A stretch of 32,288 nt of DNA from positions 1 through 32,288 of the forward strand of contig CAYYER010000001.1 in the NCBI GenBank assembly GCA_964471045.1. Direction: 5' to 3'. Source of the DNA: an uncultured archaeon. Its GTDB lineage: Archaea > Aenigmatarchaeota > Aenigmatarchaeia > CG10238-14 > SCSR01. Of this stretch, positions 81 to 11,556 are shown piece after piece (positions within the stretch are counted from its first letter, which is position 1; each line of letters starts with the position of its first letter). A program made the translations under genes and the position numbers. The notes under the pieces were generated by a model. It was not told the DNA's origin, made no database searches, and worked only from the letters and a program-made list of their open reading frames with translations.

Positions 81-602
81 CTATTTCCTCAGATAAATCT
101 TCTTCTTTAAATATTTCAAGTATTCTTTATATTTTTCCTTCTTGAGTATTCCGTCTCTTAAGGCTGAGTCCAATACAGCTTTTACCACGGAAAACCTTAG
201 AGCGTTTCTACTTTTCTGGTCTATTTCCATTTGTTTCTCTACCAATTTTAAGGCCAAATCGCACGTATTCAAACTTACTTCTATGCAATAATTCAATTCA
301 TCAGGACTTTTTGAGATACAGTAGGAGAGGTAAGAAATCATCCTAAGATTATTCAGCTTCTTCAACCTTTCCTTAACTTTTTTTGGATTTGTTTTCTGGT
401 AATCTTCAGCAATCTCTTTCTTCATTCTCCCAACAGCTTCGAAAAATGTTGAAAGCTGTTTGAGATTAGAAGTTGCGATAACATTCCTTTTAACTATTAG
501 GCCTAAAGGTGTGACAATTTCTTGACTATAAACAGTTGGAACTTTAGTTTTACTAACCCTCTTGTACAAGTCTCTAATTAATTCTTCGAAAACTTTTGTC
601 AT
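81..602 (-). CDS. hypothetical helical protein (173 aa), last gene of the 3530->81 operon
   Basis: ATG at 602-600 overlaps the TGA of the upstream gene (ATGA at 599-602). K/E-rich coding composition. No motif I recognise. Confidence 0.6.
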   Translation of the reverse strand: MTKVFEELIRDLYKRVSKTKVPTVYSQEIVTPLGLIVKRNVIATSNLKQLSTFFEAVGRMKKEIAEDYQKTNPKKVKERLKKLNNLRMISYLSYCISKSPDELNYCIEVSLNTCDLALKLVEKQMEIDQKSRNALRFSVVKAVLDSALRDGILKKEKYKEYLKYLKKKIYLRK

Positions 603-1291
603 CTATCTTCACCAAAAATTTTGGTATTGGTTTTTTTAAACTTCTCCGAATCTAAAACCGAAATTTCTTCTAGACCTATAGCTAAAGGTGCGTGAGGGGT
701 TGGATAGAATGAAATTATAGTCAAAAGATTCTCTAAGTCTTTCATCATATTTAACGCTACCTTCCTGCTCTTCGGTATATCCTTACCCCTAATTTCATTT
801 TCTCCGTAAACTGCTTCCGAAAATCTTAGGGAGTCATAGAGATGTAGAAGCTCTCCTGGATAAACATAGGTTGCACTCAAGGTTTCGTTTCCTAGCTTTA
901 TTCTAAGATTGTGTAAAGGCACTAAAGCTGGGTTTAAGCCTTCTCTTAAATCCTCCCTTACTCTCATCACATCTCTCTCTTTATCTATCAAAATTTCGAT
1001 CAACCTCCAATTTTTTTCTCCCCTTCCGTACCTATCGTCTGGACCAGACGAAAAATATCTTTGCAAGGTAGTTTTTGCACTCCTCAAAACAGAGTGAATT
1101 TTTGAAATTATATCAAAGGTATAATGTTTTTCGGGATATGAAATAAGGAGTAAATCGAGCGAGTAATCCTTTCTTATAGAAGCTCTTAATTTATTTATGT
1201 ATTTTTCGCCGAATAATCCATACTCTATTTTCTCTTTCACTTTTCCCAAATCGAAAAGTCTCCTCACGAACTCTTTAAGCTTTTCAGACAT
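599..1291 (-). CDS. hypothetical protein (230 aa)
   Basis: ATG at 1291-1289, 33 nt downstream of the preceding gene on the same strand and translationally coupled to the 173-aa gene. No recognisable motif. Confidence 0.6.
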   Translation of the reverse strand: MSEKLKEFVRRLFDLGKVKEKIEYGLFGEKYINKLRASIRKDYSLDLLLISYPEKHYTFDIISKIHSVLRSAKTTLQRYFSSGPDDRYGRGEKNWRLIEILIDKERDVMRVREDLREGLNPALVPLHNLRIKLGNETLSATYVYPGELLHLYDSLRFSEAVYGENEIRGKDIPKSRKVALNMMKDLENLLTIISFYPTPHAPLAIGLEEISVLDSEKFKKTNTKIFGEDR

Positions 1292-1324
1292 ATCCTTAAG
1301 ATAGAAAAGAAAAATATTAATTTC

Positions 1325-2458
1325 TTATCCTTTTCTCCCTTCTTTTTCTTTCTCCTTCAAAACTCTGGCTAGCTCGCGAATAAGCCTTCTCACGTATTCA
1401 CGCATTTCATAAACTTCCTTATCGGGAATTTGGTCTATTTTCTTTTGGTCCGCTAATTTCTTCAAATCTTCTATTCGCTTCCAAACATCCCAGTAATAGC
1501 CCTCTACAAGCTTTTTATCGATGAACTCTCGCTTGAAAGCCAAAGGAATCTCTTCCTCTTTCTTAGGCATTTTCTTTAGGGTTTTTAAAGCAGTAATAGC
1601 TGCCTTATAAAGCACTTCGTGCGTCCTCTCCAAAATCTTTTCTCTTTTCCTTAGCTCTAAAGCATTGAGCAAGCTAAACATTTTATTAACAAATTTCTCC
1701 GCTTTATCGATCCACTCGTCTACAAAAGCTCCGCTCACATCCATTAGCTCTTTATGCTCAATCTTTTTCCTGATTTCGATTATTTCTCTCAGCCATTCTG
1801 CATACTCTTGCTCTAGAATACCTGGCTCAACCAAGTATTTCTTAACTTCTTGGTAGGCTTTACTAGGAACAGGAGGAGCCAGACCCATGAACATTAGGAC
1901 AGCTTGCGCAGTATTCAGCATAGCATAATAGCAATCCTCAGCAAGCATTAAGAGCTTAACAGTCTTTGCTCTCATTAGCTTCTTGGGAGCTCCTTCCATG
2001 TAGCTTTCTATAGCTTCTCTTGTAGCAGGAATTCTCCCCATCTCCAAGAGTTTTTTTATTGGCGTGAAGAAGCCTGTATCATAAATCGCAACTCCCTCTT
2101 TTATAAAGTTATAAATTATTGGATGGCAAACTCTTGCATAATCCCAGAATTCGGTTAGAGTATAGCTAGGCTGAACAGAGATTCTTTCGGAAATTTTCTT
2201 GGCCATTTGCTCCAAATCCTCGTCGAGCTTTTCTTGAAATTCTGGAGTTATTTTAAAGCTAGCATCGTCTATGACAACAAAAACATCTACGTCGCTCTTC
2301 GGCTTAAACTCTTCTCTTGCGACAGAACCCATCATCACTATGCACTTGACATACTTTCCATACTTGTCCAAAACCTTCTTCGCAAATTTTTTTACCTTTT
2401 CCAAAACTTCCTCCTTCGTCTCAAGCTTCTCTTCCTTCTTTTTTTCTTTTTTTGCCAT
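1325..2458 (-). CDS. Pol-beta-superfamily nucleotidyltransferase fused to a HEPN-like helical domain (KNTase-like architecture), 377 aa
   Basis: NT signature G-S-x10-D-x-D (MMGSVAREEFKPKSDVDVFVVIDD). Helical C-terminal half carries an R-x4-H motif (RKKIEH, codons at 1754-1771). K/E-rich N- and C-terminal extensions. Its ATG directly follows the TAG of the upstream gene. Confidence 0.7.
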   Translation of the reverse strand: MAKKEKKKEEKLETKEEVLEKVKKFAKKVLDKYGKYVKCIVMMGSVAREEFKPKSDVDVFVVIDDASFKITPEFQEKLDEDLEQMAKKISERISVQPSYTLTEFWDYARVCHPIIYNFIKEGVAIYDTGFFTPIKKLLEMGRIPATREAIESYMEGAPKKLMRAKTVKLLMLAEDCYYAMLNTAQAVLMFMGLAPPVPSKAYQEVKKYLVEPGILEQEYAEWLREIIEIRKKIEHKELMDVSGAFVDEWIDKAEKFVNKMFSLLNALELRKREKILERTHEVLYKAAITALKTLKKMPKKEEEIPLAFKREFIDKKLVEGYYWDVWKRIEDLKKLADQKKIDQIPDKEVYEMREYVRRLIRELARVLKEKEKEGRKG

Positions 2459-2680
2459 CTAACCACTTCTTTTAACTTCAACCCTCAAAGGACAGAACGA
2501 AACTTCTTCACACTTTGGAATGTATTCCTCTCCCTGCTTATGAGCGTGCTCTTTTACCAAAGAAAAAACATAAGGGTCTCTTTCTTTCAACCTACTCAAG
2601 TCAGAAGTTTCTACTCTGTTAGCTGGCAACAAGCATCTTCCCTGCTTGTCCATAAAATTCCCTTTACACTTGTATTCCAT
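2459..2680 (-). CDS. small 4-Cys protein (73 aa from ATG 2680; GTG at 2689 would give 76 aa), possible metal-binding
   Basis: MEYKCKGNFMDKQGRC...IPKCEEVSFCP has two Cys pairs at the two ends plus HAH. Sits between the two NT-HEPN genes with a 1-nt gap upstream and a 0-nt gap downstream. GTGAGTAGG lies immediately 5' of the ATG. Confidence 0.5.
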   Translation of the reverse strand: MEYKCKGNFMDKQGRCLLPANRVETSDLSRLKERDPYVFSLVKEHAHKQGEEYIPKCEEVSFCPLRVEVKRSG

Positions 2681-2681
2681 C

Positions 2682-3530
2682 CTACTCACCTTCCATCTCT
2701 TCCAAAATACCTTTTGGCAACAATTTTTTCATTCTTTCAATTATTTCTTTTGCAAGCTTTAGTGCTTTTTCCAAGTAAGCTGGACTTACTTCCTTAACTA
2801 TTTTATGGTCAATATCCTTCCAGAGCTTATCCAACTCCTCAAACTTTTCTATAAATTCTGGTTCTAATTTTTCCTCCTTCACGAGCTTTTCCAAGAAGCC
2901 TGGGATAGCCTTTTGGTCTGGCTGAGCCTTATAATAATGCATTATTACAGCTTGGCAAGCATCGGTTGCCGCATACCTCAACTCAAAAATCATCGATTTT
3001 AGGTCAAGCTCGATTTTCTTGACTCTTGCTTCGCTAGCCCTTGCCTTTAGCTTTACAGCTTCTTCGCTAGGCGGTATCAAACCCATCTGGAGCATTCTTT
3101 GAACGGGCTTAATAAAACCTGTATCATAAATAGGCAGACCATATCTTAAGAAATTTATTAGCTCTGGGGAGCCAAGCTTTACCCAATTCCAGAATTCTGT
3201 AAGAGTGGTTGTTTGAATGTGCAAATCCTTAAGCTCTTGAGCGATTAGATAAAGCTGAGTATTAACCTTTTGCAAATCCTCCGAGCTTTTTGTGGCCGTA
3301 TCATCCAGAATGACCCAAACATCTATGTCGCTACCCTCCTTCATCATTCCCCTAGCTGCAGAACCGAAGATTAAAACTGATTTAATTATCTCGCCGTACT
3401 GCTTTCTAGCTTCATTGGTAAAAGCTATGACTTTTGAATAAACTTCCTTAGGAGGTTTTTTTACTTCCTTAACTTCTTCGACCAATTTCTCAGCTTTTTC
3501 CAATTCCTCTTCTAGCTTTTCCAAAGCCAT
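2682..3530 (-). CDS. Pol-beta-superfamily nucleotidyltransferase fused to a HEPN-like domain with degenerate R-x4-H motif, 282 aa (paralog of 1325-2458)
   Basis: IFGSAARGMMKEGSDIDVWVILDD NT signature. Shares LTEFW, IYDTGF and MG.IP blocks with the 377-aa protein. The position aligned to the HEPN Arg is Trp (WKDIDH). Confidence 0.7.
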   Translation of the reverse strand: MALEKLEEELEKAEKLVEEVKEVKKPPKEVYSKVIAFTNEARKQYGEIIKSVLIFGSAARGMMKEGSDIDVWVILDDTATKSSEDLQKVNTQLYLIAQELKDLHIQTTTLTEFWNWVKLGSPELINFLRYGLPIYDTGFIKPVQRMLQMGLIPPSEEAVKLKARASEARVKKIELDLKSMIFELRYAATDACQAVIMHYYKAQPDQKAIPGFLEKLVKEEKLEPEFIEKFEELDKLWKDIDHKIVKEVSPAYLEKALKLAKEIIERMKKLLPKGILEEMEGE

Positions 3531-4195: not shown

Positions 4196-5158
4196 ATGAT
4201 TAAGGTTGGGGTCAATGCTTCTCGCCGCTTGCTCTGGAACTATCCTTTGAGTAAAAGGTTTAAGATTCTCGACATGTTCCTAGAAATTTTTGAGAGATTT
4301 AAAAGGAGGGAAGAGTGGTACGTCGAGCTTGGAATAAGTGCATTCCCAGAAGTGTTTGGAGCTAGCGGAAAGGGGATTAAAAAGCAGGTTGCCCTCAAGA
4401 TCAGAAGAGTTGCCGATAAAAGAGGTTTTAAGCTAACCATTCACGCCCCCCATATAAACGAGAAGCTAATGCCAGATTTAAATCTGTGCTCTTTAAGTAA
4501 GGAGGAAAGGAAGACTTCTCTAAACTATGCGCTTTCGACCATAGATTTGGCTTACTTGCTAGAAGCCGAGTTTGTAACTTTCCATCCAGGCTACATTTAT
4601 AAGGGTTTTAGTCCGGGAAAGGAGAGATTTTTATCCAACTACTTGCATGAAGCAAAAAAATATTTGATTGAAAGCTTAAAAAAACTTGCAAGCCATGCAG
4701 AAAAGAATGGTTTAACCATTACCATAGAAAACATGGAACCAAGGATAGACGTTGGCTATCTATTAACCCATCCCTCTGAAACCAAAGAAGTGGTTAAGGC
4801 TGTTGGGAATAAGTTTTTGAAAATAACCTACGATGTAGCTCATGCTGCACTGGCTGCAAGCTATTACAAGTTTGACCAGGTTAAAAATTTTATGGAAATA
4901 GCCGACCAGGTTGTAAAGCTCCACATTCACGACAACCTTTGCAAGCCAGGACTTTATGGAAGAGTGGATTATGCAGAAGGAATAGGAGACTTGCATCTGG
5001 TTCCGTTAATAGGGAAAGGAAAGGTTCCGAACGAAGCGATTTTAAAAGTTGCGGGAAGGAAAAAGCTCGTGATCTATGAAGTCACTCCTTTAGAAGTTGA
5101 GTTCAGGCTTAGCCTGAAAAAATTAAGAGAAATTTTTGGCATTCCAGACAGCTTGTAG
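4196..5158 (+). CDS. sugar phosphate isomerase/epimerase family protein (xylose isomerase-like TIM barrel)
   Basis: Ordered motifs typical of the family: IHAPH, VTFHPGY, ITIENME, YDVAHA, LHIHDN, VIYEV. Confidence 0.7.
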   Translation: MIKVGVNASRRLLWNYPLSKRFKILDMFLEIFERFKRREEWYVELGISAFPEVFGASGKGIKKQVALKIRRVADKRGFKLTIHAPHINEKLMPDLNLCSLSKEERKTSLNYALSTIDLAYLLEAEFVTFHPGYIYKGFSPGKERFLSNYLHEAKKYLIESLKKLASHAEKNGLTITIENMEPRIDVGYLLTHPSETKEVVKAVGNKFLKITYDVAHAALAASYYKFDQVKNFMEIADQVVKLHIHDNLCKPGLYGRVDYAEGIGDLHLVPLIGKGKVPNEAILKVAGRKKLVIYEVTPLEVEFRLSLKKLREIFGIPDSL

Positions 5159-8792: not shown

Positions 8793-8957
8793 TTACAGCC
8801 AGAGCAAAACTAAGCCAATTATCATTAAAACTATTCCAAACAATACTCCTGCTCTCTGCATTTCAAAAGGTTGATAAGTAGGATGGGCAAAAGGAAATTT
8901 TACAACTATCAACAAGCCAAGAAAGAATAAGAATCCGCCAGCTATTTTGTTTATCAT
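8793..8957 (-). CDS. 54-aa two-TM hairpin membrane protein (below the ORF-track length cutoff)
   Basis: My translation of the minus strand: MINKIAGGFLFFLGLLIVVKFPFAHPTYQPFEMQRAGVLFGIVLMIIGLVLLWL*. ATG 8957-8955 overlaps the TGA 8956-8954 of the upstream small gene (ATGA). TAA at 8795-8793. Confidence 0.5.
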   Translation of the reverse strand: MINKIAGGFLFFLGLLIVVKFPFAHPTYQPFEMQRAGVLFGIVLMIIGLVLLWL

Positions 8958-9163
8958 AATTTAAGTAACTCCCAGCCAAGATAAATAAATATCGGTCCGA
9001 AGAAAAGCTGGAACAAGAAGTTTTTCTGATTTCCGACATAAACCAAGCCAAAGATAAAAACGCTTCCCAAAAACATTAAGACTGCTCCCAAAAGCTTAGA
9101 AACTAGAGGCGGTAAGCTTACTAACTTTACAAATTCTAAGATTTTTCCAGGATTTTCGAGCAT
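8954..9163 (-). CDS. 69-aa two-TM hairpin membrane protein
   Basis: MLENPGKILEFVKLVSLPPLVSKLLGAVLMFLGSVFIFGLVYVGNQKNFLFQLFFGPIFIYLGWELLKL. I prefer the internal ATG at 9163, because the track start at 9238 would overlap the divergent gene starting at 9223 and remove the promoter gap. Confidence 0.5.
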   Translation of the reverse strand: MLENPGKILEFVKLVSLPPLVSKLLGAVLMFLGSVFIFGLVYVGNQKNFLFQLFFGPIFIYLGWELLKL

Positions 9164-9183
9164 GAATAAAATTTCATGCAAAA

Positions 9184-9192
9184 ATTTATAAC
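9184..9192. promoter_or_regulatory. putative shared TATA element (ATTTATAAC / GTTATAAAT) in the 59-nt divergent gap
   Basis: Centre is about 25 nt from ATG 9163 (minus) and about 35 nt from ATG 9223 (plus). It is the only strong TATA-like word in the gap. Confidence 0.35.
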
Positions 9193-9222
9193 TTTTTAGT
9201 TTCTTAAAACCAAATTTTAAAT

Positions 9223-9777
9223 ATGCCAGTATTTGCAAGGACCAAGCTAGTTATACACGATGATTGTTTAGCTACTGCTCCAGGAAGCGTTTTGCCTGGA
9301 GTTCCTTACTTGCTTTTAACCTACGAGGGTCCAAACCCCCAGCGCTTGTACGAAAAGATAAAGGAGCTTTTTGCAACGATTTTTAGGCACGATCCTGGGG
9401 AGCTTCAAGAAAGGGATTTTGTTTGGGATAAGAGTGAAGCAGGAGAAAAGTTTAGGGTAAGGTTTGAGCTCATAAAGGATATGGACAGATTTTCCTTCAT
9501 TCAGGTAATAGTAACCCTGCAAGGTGAAGCAAGGCCTAGCAAGGAATTTGGGAAGGAGGGAAAGGCGAAGATAAGGATAGAGGGAAGGATAAGGACCGAA
9601 TATCCTCAGGATACTCTCTGGCAAAGAAGCTTATTCTATGAAATGTTTAGGGTTTTGTACCATAGGCTAATCTACGAAGAGAAAAGGCAGAGATATAAGA
9701 ATCAGTGCAGGGAATGGCTTTTAAGGTTTCAAGACGAACTAAAGGCTTTCCTTAACATCTTGCCAAGGGAGAGGTAA
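9223..9777 (+). CDS. uncharacterised protein, tandem paralog A (184 aa)
   Basis: Shares DDCLA, Y.GP.P, ERDF.WD, IRI.GR.RTEY, QRS and YH.L.YEE blocks with the next gene. Stop TAA overlaps the next ATG (TAATG at 9775-9779). Confidence 0.7.
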   Translation: MPVFARTKLVIHDDCLATAPGSVLPGVPYLLLTYEGPNPQRLYEKIKELFATIFRHDPGELQERDFVWDKSEAGEKFRVRFELIKDMDRFSFIQVIVTLQGEARPSKEFGKEGKAKIRIEGRIRTEYPQDTLWQRSLFYEMFRVLYHRLIYEEKRQRYKNQCREWLLRFQDELKAFLNILPRER

Positions 9778-10292
9778 TGCCACGCTGGGTTTTTGAGGAC
9801 GATTGCCTAGCTCCAGAAAGAACCTTAACCATAGAGTACAGCGGCCCAGATCCTTTTAGAGTTTGTAGAGTTTTAAGAGATATGCTCGGGAGAATTTTTC
9901 AAGTCGAAACCATAGATTTGTGGGAAAGGGATTTTAGGTGGGACATAAGCTCAGACCCAAGACCTTTTTACATGAGGATGTACGTGAATAAAGGAATAGA
10001 TGCAAGAACTAGGATGATGGTCGAAATTACTGTTCAGGGTCTGCAACCATCTGACCCAAGTAAAAAAGGGAAGGTAACTATTAGAATAAGCGGGAGGTTA
10101 AGAACCGAGTACAATTTAAAATCGTTCTTTCAGCGTTCTCCTCTCTACAAAGCTTTTGTATGGGTCTATCACAAGCTTTTCTATGAAGAGGTGAAGAGAA
10201 GTTATATTCATCTGTGTAATAGGCTTATCGAAGAATTGCACTTAGAATTAAGGGCTTTATTCAAATTGCCCGTATCCGAGAGGGTAAGATAA
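9777..10292 (+). CDS. uncharacterised protein, tandem paralog B (171 aa)
   Basis: See paralog A. GGAGAGGT Shine-Dalgarno-like motif just upstream. TAATG overlap with the next gene at 10290-10294. Confidence 0.7.
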   Translation: MPRWVFEDDCLAPERTLTIEYSGPDPFRVCRVLRDMLGRIFQVETIDLWERDFRWDISSDPRPFYMRMYVNKGIDARTRMMVEITVQGLQPSDPSKKGKVTIRISGRLRTEYNLKSFFQRSPLYKAFVWVYHKLFYEEVKRSYIHLCNRLIEELHLELRALFKLPVSERVR

Positions 10293-10543
10293 TGGGAATA
10301 TTTTCGAGGATAAAGGGCATCTTTAGAAGGAAGAAAGAGGAGCCAGTAGAAGAATTGCCTGAGATTCCGGAGGAAAAGCCCTTGGAAAGCTTGGAGCCGG
10401 CAACCCTGGAAAATCTAAAGGCAAAAATGGATTTGATCCTAACCCAAATGGAAAGCTTAAAGATCCAGAATGAAACCTTGATGGAAAGACTGAAAATTAT
10501 AGAAAAACTGTTGATAGAAATAAGAAAGCTAGCGGTTAGCTGA
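10292..10543 (+). CDS. 83-aa protein: N-terminal basic amphipathic helix (MGIFSRIKGIFRRKK), acidic Pro-rich linker, C-terminal coiled coil
   Basis: Translation from the track. GAGAGGGT SD-like motif 7 nt upstream. Hydrophobic residues at positions 3, 4, 7, 10 and 11 with flanking R/K. Heptad-like L/I/M spacing in LKAKMDLILTQMESLKIQNETLMERLKIIEKLLIEIRKL. Confidence 0.6.
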   Translation: MGIFSRIKGIFRRKKEEPVEELPEIPEEKPLESLEPATLENLKAKMDLILTQMESLKIQNETLMERLKIIEKLLIEIRKLAVS

Positions 10544-11023
10544 AAATCTCTTAAGGACAAAATAAGTAACAATTCTCTTTTCTAGATTTAGCCAATCCTT
10601 TAAGTATTCTAAAGTTTCATCCTCTAGCTTGCATATTTTACTAACCGAGTTTGCCCTACTCCTAAGAAAAAGAAAGTCATCCTTCGTCAGATAAATTTCC
10701 TCGTAATCCTTTAACTCCTTTAACCTCTTTACTAATTCTTCATTTCTGTTAACATAGACTCTTATCCAGAAAGGAATGATTCCTCTTTTCTTTTCTCCTA
10801 AAATTTCAACTTCTATTTCCTTTAACCCTTCTTTTTCTATCCCCAAATTCTTACAAATTTTATCCACATCCTTTTTACTACCCTCAAACTTTCCTATCCC
10901 ATCTATCAATTCGCTAGCTATAGAATCAACATATTCACATCCTTCATACTCAACCAATCTTTCAGCTAAAGGAAAAAGTGGATTAGTTCTTTCTAGGAGA
11001 ACCAAGTATTTTTTGATTTTCAT
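10529..11023 (-). CDS. hypothetical protein (164 aa)
   Basis: ATG at 11023. TTTAAA-type box about 25-30 nt upstream in the 35-nt gap. 3' end overlaps the convergent 83-aa gene by 15 nt. No motif recognised. Confidence 0.55.
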   Translation of the reverse strand: MKIKKYLVLLERTNPLFPLAERLVEYEGCEYVDSIASELIDGIGKFEGSKKDVDKICKNLGIEKEGLKEIEVEILGEKKRGIIPFWIRVYVNRNEELVKRLKELKDYEEIYLTKDDFLFLRSRANSVSKICKLEDETLEYLKDWLNLEKRIVTYFVLKRFSANR

Positions 11024-11058: not shown

Positions 11059-11556
11059 TTAGAGTTCATCTCTACAAGTTTCGCATAACCATTTTCCTTC
11101 AACCTTTTTCAGCCCGTCATAAGCTTGACCGCAAGACTCACAAATCCCAATTTCCAAATCTTTTTCTTGATCTTCGGCTATTATTATAGGCTCGACTTTC
11201 CTCAATTTTAAGACATAGCCTGTGCCTAAAAAGTCGAAGTTAAAGAATTGAGCCAATTTTCTTGCCAGCTCTATATCTTTCCCAAAAAGCCACCAGAAAA
11301 GCTCGTTTATATAACAATAAGGACAAACCATCACATCGAAAGTTCTTTTACACCTTATGCATTTTACCTTTTTTTCTGGATTGCTCGATAAGAAGAATTT
11401 TGAAAATTTTTCGTGAAAAGATTCGAATTCCTTCCTAAGCTCTGGCTTATCCGAAAACAAGAATTTTTTGACATCCTTTGCTAAGCAATCTACGCAAATG
11501 AAATTGAACAAAGGTTCCAAGCACAATTTGCAAATCTGCGTTTCCCTTGCTTCCAT
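11059..11556 (-). CDS. Cys-rich protein with six CxxC motifs (three predicted zinc-ribbon sites), 165 aa
   Basis: CKLC..CVDC, CIRC..CPYC and CESC..CETC are arranged as three pairs. Confidence 0.65.
   Translation of the reverse strand: MEARETQICKLCLEPLFNFICVDCLAKDVKKFLFSDKPELRKEFESFHEKFSKFFLSSNPEKKVKCIRCKRTFDVMVCPYCYINELFWWLFGKDIELARKLAQFFNFDFLGTGYVLKLRKVEPIIIAEDQEKDLEIGICESCGQAYDGLKKVEGKWLCETCRDEL

Follow-up and report, generated by a model that had tools for sequence, protein, structure and literature searches.

A near-universal tandem gene pair of Aenigmatarchaeota encodes an undescribed protein family and lies in a conserved, putatively membrane-associated gene cluster

What is encoded by two overlapping genes, here called A and B, that lie side by side in a 32,288 nucleotide (nt) stretch of DNA from an uncultured archaeon of the phylum Aenigmatarchaeota (assembly GCA_964471045.1, contig CAYYER010000001.1; the whole stretch is hereafter the window), and do their two products act together? 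Members of this phylum are DPANN archaea with reduced genomes that have not been cultivated, and most of the functions that define their lifestyle lie hidden in genes annotated as “hypothetical”. The pair was singled out in a sequence-only reading, made from the letters of the window and its open reading frames (ORFs), as tandem duplicates of an unknown family that might form an obligate heterodimer. Here we report that A and B, which are ancient tandem paralogs of a ~160-190 amino acid (aa) family undescribed in every library searched, are a near-universal core gene pair of the phylum, that they belong to a seven-gene cluster of almost invariant order, and that an A-B heteromer is plausible, with the word “obligate” no longer applicable.

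Both ORFs and their junction are present as the sequence-only reading described them: A ends in a TAA stop codon (9775-9777) that has one base in common with the ATG of B (9777-9779), giving a TAATG overlap. A BLASTP comparison of the two products gave 62/177 identities (35%) and 53% positives at E 3e-31 over essentially their full length, a similarity far above chance level. Each of the conserved blocks listed in the earlier reading was found in A and in B, namely DDCLA, Y-x-GP-x-P, ERDF-x-WD, V-T-x-QG, GK-x-x-IRI-x-GR-x-RTEY, QRS, YH-x-L-x-YEE and a late Cys. Each paralog also has sequence of its own, with GPNPQ and RTEYPQDTxWQRS in A and WERDFRWD and DPRxF in B. Protein A in addition keeps the Cys15/Cys162 pair, and B lacks two elements of A, its first N-terminal strand and the insert at 19-26. 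Hydrophobic segments are absent from both proteins, whose highest Kyte-Doolittle scores over 19 residues are 1.28 and 0.50, and no signal peptide or transmembrane segment was found in either. Against close relatives the non-synonymous divergence (dN) is 0.07-0.10 for A and 0.17-0.20 for B, well below a saturated synonymous divergence (dS), and A and B are therefore coding genes under strong purifying selection, with B evolving at about twice the rate of A.

Searches of Pfam, NCBIfam, PADLOC and PHROGs returned no match to A or B, and sequence searches of the PDB, made with a single sequence and with a 96-sequence profile, gave no credible match. Pfam scans of each of the 96 family members found no consistent match, and the model 4HPAD_g_N, which matched 8/96 members over 15 residues with a best E of 0.007, was rejected as a short compositional match. 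A full-text literature search found no paper on the family. Homologue searches recovered 330 relatives of A and 37 of B, all of them annotated “hypothetical protein” and the named ones belonging to Candidatus Aenigmatarchaeota, so that the description of the family as unknown has held up. When 1.84 billion representative proteins (50% identity) were searched with the family profile, 287 fell at E<=1e-3, all of 97-222 aa and mostly of 150-200; two paralogs in each of ~150 genera would roughly equal this number. The named distant members are Aenigmatarchaeota, with the exception of one “WOR-3” record that is probably mis-binned, and a scan of one genome per GTDB species, for which the query was an A-only alignment, yielded 209 loci whose named members are all Aenigmatarchaeota bar one “Micrarchaeota” metagenome-assembled genome (MAG) with a probably outdated name. 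We infer that the A/B family is confined to this phylum.

Within the phylum the family was found in 286/301 sampled genomes and in 96/98 of those of high quality, and the A/B pair is thus a near-universal core gene pair of Aenigmatarchaeota. By hand count, ~242 of the 301 genomes hold exactly two copies, ~32 hold one and 12 hold three or four. A reading of the locus as a defence island or mobile element was rejected on this core phylum-wide distribution, together with the lack of any PADLOC or PHROGs match. A and B form separate clades in the family tree, where the A orthologues, the upstream copies of divergent pairs and all single-copy genes group together (52 rows, 98% local support), and the duplication is older than most family-level splits in the phylum. 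Re-examination of eight “one-hit” genomes at a lax threshold revealed an adjacent, very divergent second copy in two of them (families f24 and f3-g28) and a true single gene with no neighbouring paralog in the other six (families f9, f17, f27 and f32), where the gene sits elsewhere, beside a gene of ~127 aa whose sequence looks Hjc-like and a gene with a CBS domain. The single-copy genes are a nested subclade within the A clade (96% support), and the single-copy state is therefore derived by loss of B, an event that probably happened once, and is not an ancestral unduplicated state. Both the single-copy and the duplicated state, which the sequence-only reading had suggested looking for in other genomes, thus exist, and the singles derive from A.

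Two side observations concern individual genomes. Genomes G203 and G263 each have 3-4 family matches. In six genome rows (G076, G090, G092, G130, G206 and G041) the B-type matches are flagged as having one TAA inside, which most likely reflects the profile alignment extending a few codons upstream across the A stop, and not a recoded or broken gene.

Several features of the pair bear on whether the two products form a heteromer. Two copies are present in most genomes, the genes adjoin in 72 of 80 species-level loci, and the median gap from A to B is 4 nt, with 64/74 gaps between -10 and +15 nt; each paralog furthermore has its own conserved signature. We favour an A-B heteromer because of this phylum-wide adjacency, this tight coupling and these paralog-specific signatures. 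The earlier reading had gone further in calling the heterodimer obligate, a term that we have dropped since whole lineages (f9, f17, f27 and f32) carry one A-type copy only, and neither subunit would be expected to occur alone in an obligate pair. No natural A-B fusion was found among the homologues, the 287 representatives or the 80 loci; open frames of 306-322 aa that were considered as fusions were rejected, being upstream read-through of the frame.

A restraint on how each chain folds comes from the two cysteines at positions 15 and 162. Across 454 family sequences both are present in 324, both are absent in 121 and only 9 are mixed, a coupling with a Fisher p of 2.6e-98 when phylogeny is ignored. 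Sequences that have lost the pair carry Leu, Val or Ile at position 15 and Gly or Ala at position 162, a large/small swap. A tree built without the two Cys columns requires at least 9 changes at Cys15 and at least 13 at Cys162, and 5/5 independent contrasts on well-supported branches agree (sign test p 0.0625, the best reachable with five pairs). Among 65 same-genome pairs scored, A retains the Cys pair in every case, B has lost both in 12 and two more are half-lost. Since A keeps both cysteines in genomes where B has lost both, the contact lies within one chain and not across A and B. It brings the C-terminal helix, at a point ~25 residues into it, up to the end of the N-terminal strand, and the two cysteines are probably joined by a disulfide or in tight contact. 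Thermophily was rejected as the cause of loss, as no habitat pattern is apparent and hot-spring MAGs also lose the pair in B. The coupled replacement of Cys/Cys by a hydrophobic and a small residue provides a sequence-derived restraint for checking any future structure.

Other couplings are weaker. Covariation of Y127 with I150 and of G121 with L166 suggests that the C-terminal helix runs antiparallel along strand 7. Mean-field direct-coupling analysis of ~450 family sequences (effective number ~300) was dominated by A-versus-B subfamily indel artefacts, left few usable helix-sheet pairs after the removal of gappy columns, and gave a signal that was not good enough to derive either the sheet order or an intermolecular contact.

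AlphaFold2, run with the 96-sequence alignment, produced a model of A with a mean predicted local distance difference test score (pLDDT) of 81 and a predicted template modelling score (pTM) of 0.74, in which strands at 2-5, 8-14, 29-37, 62-69, 75-86, 91-106 and 110-128 are accompanied by helices at 41-53 and 137-179. Each paralog is thus predicted to be a two-layer alpha+beta protein with six or seven long antiparallel strands (seven in the A model, six expected in B) and a 43-residue amphipathic, Tyr/Phe-rich C-terminal helix, which reproduces the beta-rich core followed by a long C-terminal helix that had been read from the sequence alone. Hydrophobic alternation identifies one face of the sheet (F66, W68, F77, V79, F81, I93-L99, I117-L123 and Y127), which would pack on the Tyr/Phe face of the helix (Y139, F142, Y146, F150, Y151 and Y158); the conserved helix face and the conserved sheet aromatics could line a cavity or fill a solid core. 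Among polar residues, conservation is highest at E63, D69, D88, K85, T125, E126, R155 and D13/D14, which are kept in both paralogs and may lie on the opposite face of the sheet or at its two ends, where conserved exposed charges would fit protein-protein interfaces or a polar ligand site.

Foldseek comparison of this model with the PDB gave 12 matches at E<=1e-3, all of them Cyt-like or SRPBCC lipid/ligand binders. The geometrically best were Cyt1Aa and volvatoxin A2 (probability 1.0, TM-score 0.30-0.34, root-mean-square deviation (rmsd) ~8.5 Å, ~145 aligned columns). SRPBCC/Bet v 1 chains followed at E 3e-4 to 5e-3, TM-score 0.15-0.31 and rmsd 11-17 Å, those at E<=1e-3 being CoxG-like APE2225, mll3774, PYL, Cor a 1, LlPR-10 and Ara h 8, and START, Ups1/PRELID and carotenoid-binding proteins came next at E ~1e-3 to 5e-3. 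The viral structure library BFVD offered only uncharacterised proteins at TM-score <=0.35 and was rejected as a source of relatives. The Foldseek search suggested in the sequence-only reading therefore reveals a loose likeness to Cyt-like and helix-grip folds, at TM-scores of no more than 0.34.

The helix-grip fold has a seven-strand core sheet (PMC12139934). The proteins of this group and its analogues (Bet v 1, PYR/PYL, START, CoxG and AHSA1, with Ups1/PRELI as analogous) resemble A and B as modelled in being soluble alpha+beta proteins of ~150-200 aa with an antiparallel sheet of about seven strands and a long amphipathic C-terminal helix on it, and most of the Foldseek matches at E<5e-3 belong here. 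They differ in order, which is beta-beta-beta-alpha-beta4-alpha in A/B, with one short helix after strand 3, as opposed to beta-alpha-alpha-beta6-alpha in Bet v 1; A/B also have much longer strands, of up to 19 residues, and a much longer helix, of 43, and their conserved residues are largely charged. The Cyt-like fold of the Cyt1Aa/Cyt2 delta-endotoxins and volvatoxin A2, whose members are membrane- or lipid-interacting proteins, likewise combines long antiparallel strands with amphipathic helices at their flanks. Cyt proteins have helix hairpins on either side of the sheet and lack a C-terminal helix of 43 residues. Unlike those toxins, A and B are core cytoplasmic genes of a symbiont, without a sequence-family match, signal peptide or toxin context, and a TM-score of ~0.3 is under the usual same-fold threshold; with no Pfam match, TM-scores of 0.30-0.34 and the status of a phylum-wide core gene, membership of the Cyt-like toxins was rejected.

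What remains of the helix-grip (SRPBCC-like) proposal made in the sequence-only reading is the predicted architecture, a sheet gripped by a C-terminal helix, with Foldseek support in the E range given above; membership of the superfamily does not follow, as 0/96 family members matched an SRPBCC Pfam model at E<=1, no superposition with solved SRPBCC members reached a same-fold TM-score of at least 0.5, and hhalign comparison of the family profile with three Polyketide_cyc2 proteins of the phylum, a thin 3-sequence profile, gave a probability of 0.2%. The helix-grip-like impression is thus reasonable, and weakly supported, at the level of architecture, and in the predicted model A/B resemble a stretched form of alpha+beta folds known from ligand-binding proteins.

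The surroundings of the pair are conserved too. The order P602<-P612<-TM2<-TM1, followed by the divergent genes ->A->B->C (Table 1), is almost invariant across the 80 species-level loci, and two long contigs from relatives read in the same way, with leftward genes of ~600-670, ~576-612 and ~55 aa next to a rightward A, B and a gene of ~85-106 aa. Locus counts in Table 1 were obtained with phmmer using the window proteins as queries and are lower bounds, owing to contig ends and to the very short TM queries. In the two rearranged loci (L114 and L124) the cluster genes are still linked. One genome, G004 (94% complete), is missing A/B, P612 and P602 together, and it is the sole exception among 151 genomes of the phylum in which P612 was sought and found in 150. 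In the single-copy lineages A is unlinked from the cluster, P612 and P602 stay adjacent, and P612 is only ~400-437 aa long with its N-terminal half kept, a pattern that hints at a connection of B with the C-terminal half of P612 but probably reflects one evolutionary event. As a side observation, the MAG JZ-2_201705_bins_269 holds two complete copies of the whole cluster on two scaffolds (L061 and L093), with A identities to the window of 59% and 46%; either the bin is mixed or the module has truly been duplicated.

Table 1. Positions of the A/B pair, its cluster partners and other features of the window, with the number of species-level loci (of 80) in which each was matched
Feature	Coordinates	Strand	Description	Loci matched
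Gene A	9223..9777	+	184 aa; slower-evolving paralog; soluble; isoelectric point (pI) 9.2	80
Gene B	9777..10292	+	171 aa; faster-evolving paralog; soluble; pI 9.45	74 (adjoins A in 72)
Gene C	10292..10543	+	83 aa; ATG overlaps the B stop (TAATG); third gene of the A-B-C operon	51
Control region	9164..9222	.	59 nt, AT-rich, between the two divergent operons	
TM1	8954..9163	-	69-aa miniprotein, two predicted hydrophobic helices; first gene of the divergent operon	31
TM2	8793..8957	-	54-aa miniprotein, two predicted hydrophobic helices; ATGA overlap with TM1	47
P612	6951..8753	-	~600 aa; long antiparallel helical stalk (helices 86-145 and 216-280) and beta-hairpin domains	66
P602	5159..6967	-	~600 aa; divergent xylose-isomerase-like (AP_endonuc_2, PF01261) TIM barrel with a large insertion	54
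Xylose-isomerase-like barrel	4196..5158		320 aa, canonical	
Nucleotidyltransferase block	81..3530	-	two genes (NTP_transf_2/Polbeta, one with HEPN), beyond P602	
Cys-rich protein	11059..11556	-	165 aa; multiple CxxC; zinc-ribbon-like	14 (downstream of A-B-C)
Orphan	10529..11023	-	164 aa	5
Antisense ORF opposite A	9316..9624	-	102 aa; most likely spurious	
Antisense ORF opposite B/C	10261..10572	-	103 aa; most likely spurious	

The partners point to a membrane setting with one recognisable enzyme. Protein C has a conserved basic amphipathic N-terminus (MGIFSRIKGIFRRKKEE; family pattern MG(I/L)F..(K/R)..RRKKKE), an acidic Pro/Glu-rich linker and a C-terminal coiled coil with the conserved pattern NLKAKxDLxLTQxDSLKxQ, and it looks like a membrane tether because in some lineages the N-terminus is extended to a hydrophobic segment of ~20 residues. 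Taken with the hydrophobic miniproteins TM1 and TM2, this N-terminus suggests that the module is membrane-associated. P612, for which no sequence family was found, was modelled by AlphaFold2 with a pLDDT of 80 and a pTM of 0.72, and comparison with PDB structures gave no match at E<0.1, with only dynein-stalk or SMC coiled coils turning up. P602 carries invariant His/Glu/Asp residues of the metal-binding kind in its superfamily and a poorly conserved long insertion in mid-barrel; PF01261 was matched by 11/31 orthologues (best E 5.4e-8), the window copy itself being without a match, and weak PDB sequence matches are to endonuclease IV. It always abuts P612, even where A/B sit elsewhere. Paralogy of P612 and P602 was rejected, as was homology of A/B to domains of either (hhalign probabilities of 0.3% and 0.7%).

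At somewhat short of an even chance, the reading that we favour is that an A/B heteromer forms the soluble part of this membrane-associated P602/P612/TM/C module that binds a hydrophobic ligand, a lipid or the membrane. In such a complex A would be a constrained core subunit and B a faster-evolving auxiliary one, dispensable in some lineages; C and the TM miniproteins would tether the heteromer at the membrane, where it would act with P612 and P602, most likely serving the TIM-barrel enzyme by binding the membrane surface or a ligand of hydrophobic or lipid-like nature. A role of this kind is proposed because the nearest fold analogues (helix-grip START/Bet v 1/Ups1 and Cyt-like) have one. Helix-grip-type modules often work as heteromers, as in Ups1-Mdm35 and PYL-PP2C. 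A number of observations weigh against it. The single-copy families indicate that an A-type protein needs neither B nor a place in the cluster in order to work, and in family f2 the A/B pair lies at least 20 kb from P612/P602 or on another contig. Both proteins are basic, which leaves no evident complementarity of charge between them. The fold matches are weak throughout (TM-score 0.15-0.34, rmsd 8-17 Å), the hhalign comparison with Polyketide_cyc2 proteins was negative, and the most conserved residues are charged (E63, D69, D88, E126, R155 and D13/D14), not the hydrophobic cavity lining of a pure lipid carrier.

Some of these points would be accommodated if A and B were subfunctionalised paralogs that act separately, as their own homo-oligomers or as monomers, and are adjacent through operon inheritance only. 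Single A-type copies suffice in several families and in another genomic context, B evolves at about twice the rate of A and is without the Cys pair in 12/65 genomes, and two basic proteins have no obvious charge complementarity. We nevertheless regard separate action as fairly unlikely, since ~80% of the 301 genomes hold exactly two copies that are nearly always adjacent, with gaps of ~0-8 nt or a stop/start overlap, the same polar residues are conserved in both paralogs, and genes duplicated before most family-level splits have almost never parted. The identity of P602 raises a different explanation, in which A and B are nucleic-acid-binding accessories of an Endo-IV-like repair or processing complex, their basic sheet presenting DNA or RNA to P602 as a metal-dependent phosphodiesterase with P612 as an SMC/Rad50-like stalk. 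This would fit pI values above 9 in both proteins, the outward Lys/Arg runs on strands 5 and 7 of the window proteins, the AP_endonuc_2 superfamily and endonuclease IV matches of P602, the coiled-coil stalks (SMC among them) that are the sole fold matches of P612, and the syntenic nucleotidyltransferase/HEPN genes next door; the beta-alpha-beta4-alpha order also recalls TBP-like DNA-binding domains. It is weakened by the poor family-wide conservation of those outward basic residues, with Lys/Arg fractions of 0.25-0.39 at positions 114, 116, 118 and 122, and by the two membrane miniproteins and the membrane-tethered C, which are unusual for repair machinery. The top 50 Foldseek matches include no TBP or nucleic-acid-binding fold, and AP_endonuc_2 barrels, in line with the Pfam description, are mostly sugar or phosphoester enzymes and not nucleases. 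We consider a nucleic-acid role improbable on balance.

The long stalk of P612 could instead belong to an Aenigmatarchaeota-specific apparatus for membrane remodelling, division or cell contact, in which A/B would polymerise or cap the stalks as a scaffold and C would be a PspA/ESCRT-III-like anchor. Clusters of conserved residues at both ends of an elongated molecule, the PspA-like MGIFS... N-terminus and coiled coil of C, the truncation of P612 in lineages without B, and a module that is core and not accessory across the phylum are consistent with such a scaffold, yet no similarity to a known cytoskeletal, ESCRT or PspA protein was found, C is far too short for a PspA/ESCRT-III protein, and an enzyme, P602, is the integral and always-adjacent partner of P612; we think this explanation improbable too. 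It is more doubtful still that A/B is itself an enzyme or a redox sensor, whether an SRPBCC-type cyclase/dehydratase-like catalyst or a Cys15/Cys162 thiol-disulfide switch. The SRPBCC superfamily does include enzymes, near-invariant E63, D88, T125, Y151, R155, W68 and F77 in both paralogs look more like an active site than a passive carrier, and the Cys pair is kept in A in 65/65 same-genome pairs. However, 27% of members have swapped the pair for a hydrophobic and a small residue, with at least 9 independent changes, which is the behaviour of a structural contact and not of a catalytic one, and no enzyme family was matched, so that we hold this possibility to be very slight.

If the heteromer reading is taken a step further, A/B, C, the TM miniproteins, P612 and P602 would together be an undescribed membrane-associated machine that is specific to, and essential for, Aenigmatarchaeota, an extension that we consider rather unlikely as it stands. 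One possibility for such a machine would be lipid or envelope-precursor handling, or host contact, with A/B as a new heteromeric lipid or ligand carrier unrelated by descent to START/Bet v 1. Whatever the function, the A/B pair is among the few phylum-specific families that are near-universal in good genomes, and genes kept so stubbornly in genomes of 0.5-1 Mb are likely to be important for the cell. The seven-gene cluster brings together membrane tethers, a metalloenzyme and a stalk protein of orphan fold, and A and B, being small, soluble and confidently predicted, offer practical entry points to the function of the whole module. On the sequence evidence they appear to constitute a robust, testable and phylum-defining family.

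A number of lesser features lie within or around the cluster. Between the divergent operons, a TATA-like TTTATAA was read by eye at ~9185-9191, ~35 nt 5' of the A start codon. The ORFs antisense to A and to B/C (Table 1) were judged most likely spurious because of their low-complexity look and because the opposite frames are under strong purifying selection. Beyond P602, the nucleotidyltransferase block is syntenic with the cluster across the phylum and also occurs in distant relatives (L003, 1729-3785; L005, 1322-3457); the canonical xylose-isomerase-like barrel is inserted between this block and the cluster in this window only. Neither the Cys-rich protein nor the orphan on the other side has a Pfam family, and the former is often followed by an Lrp/AsnC regulator (13 loci).

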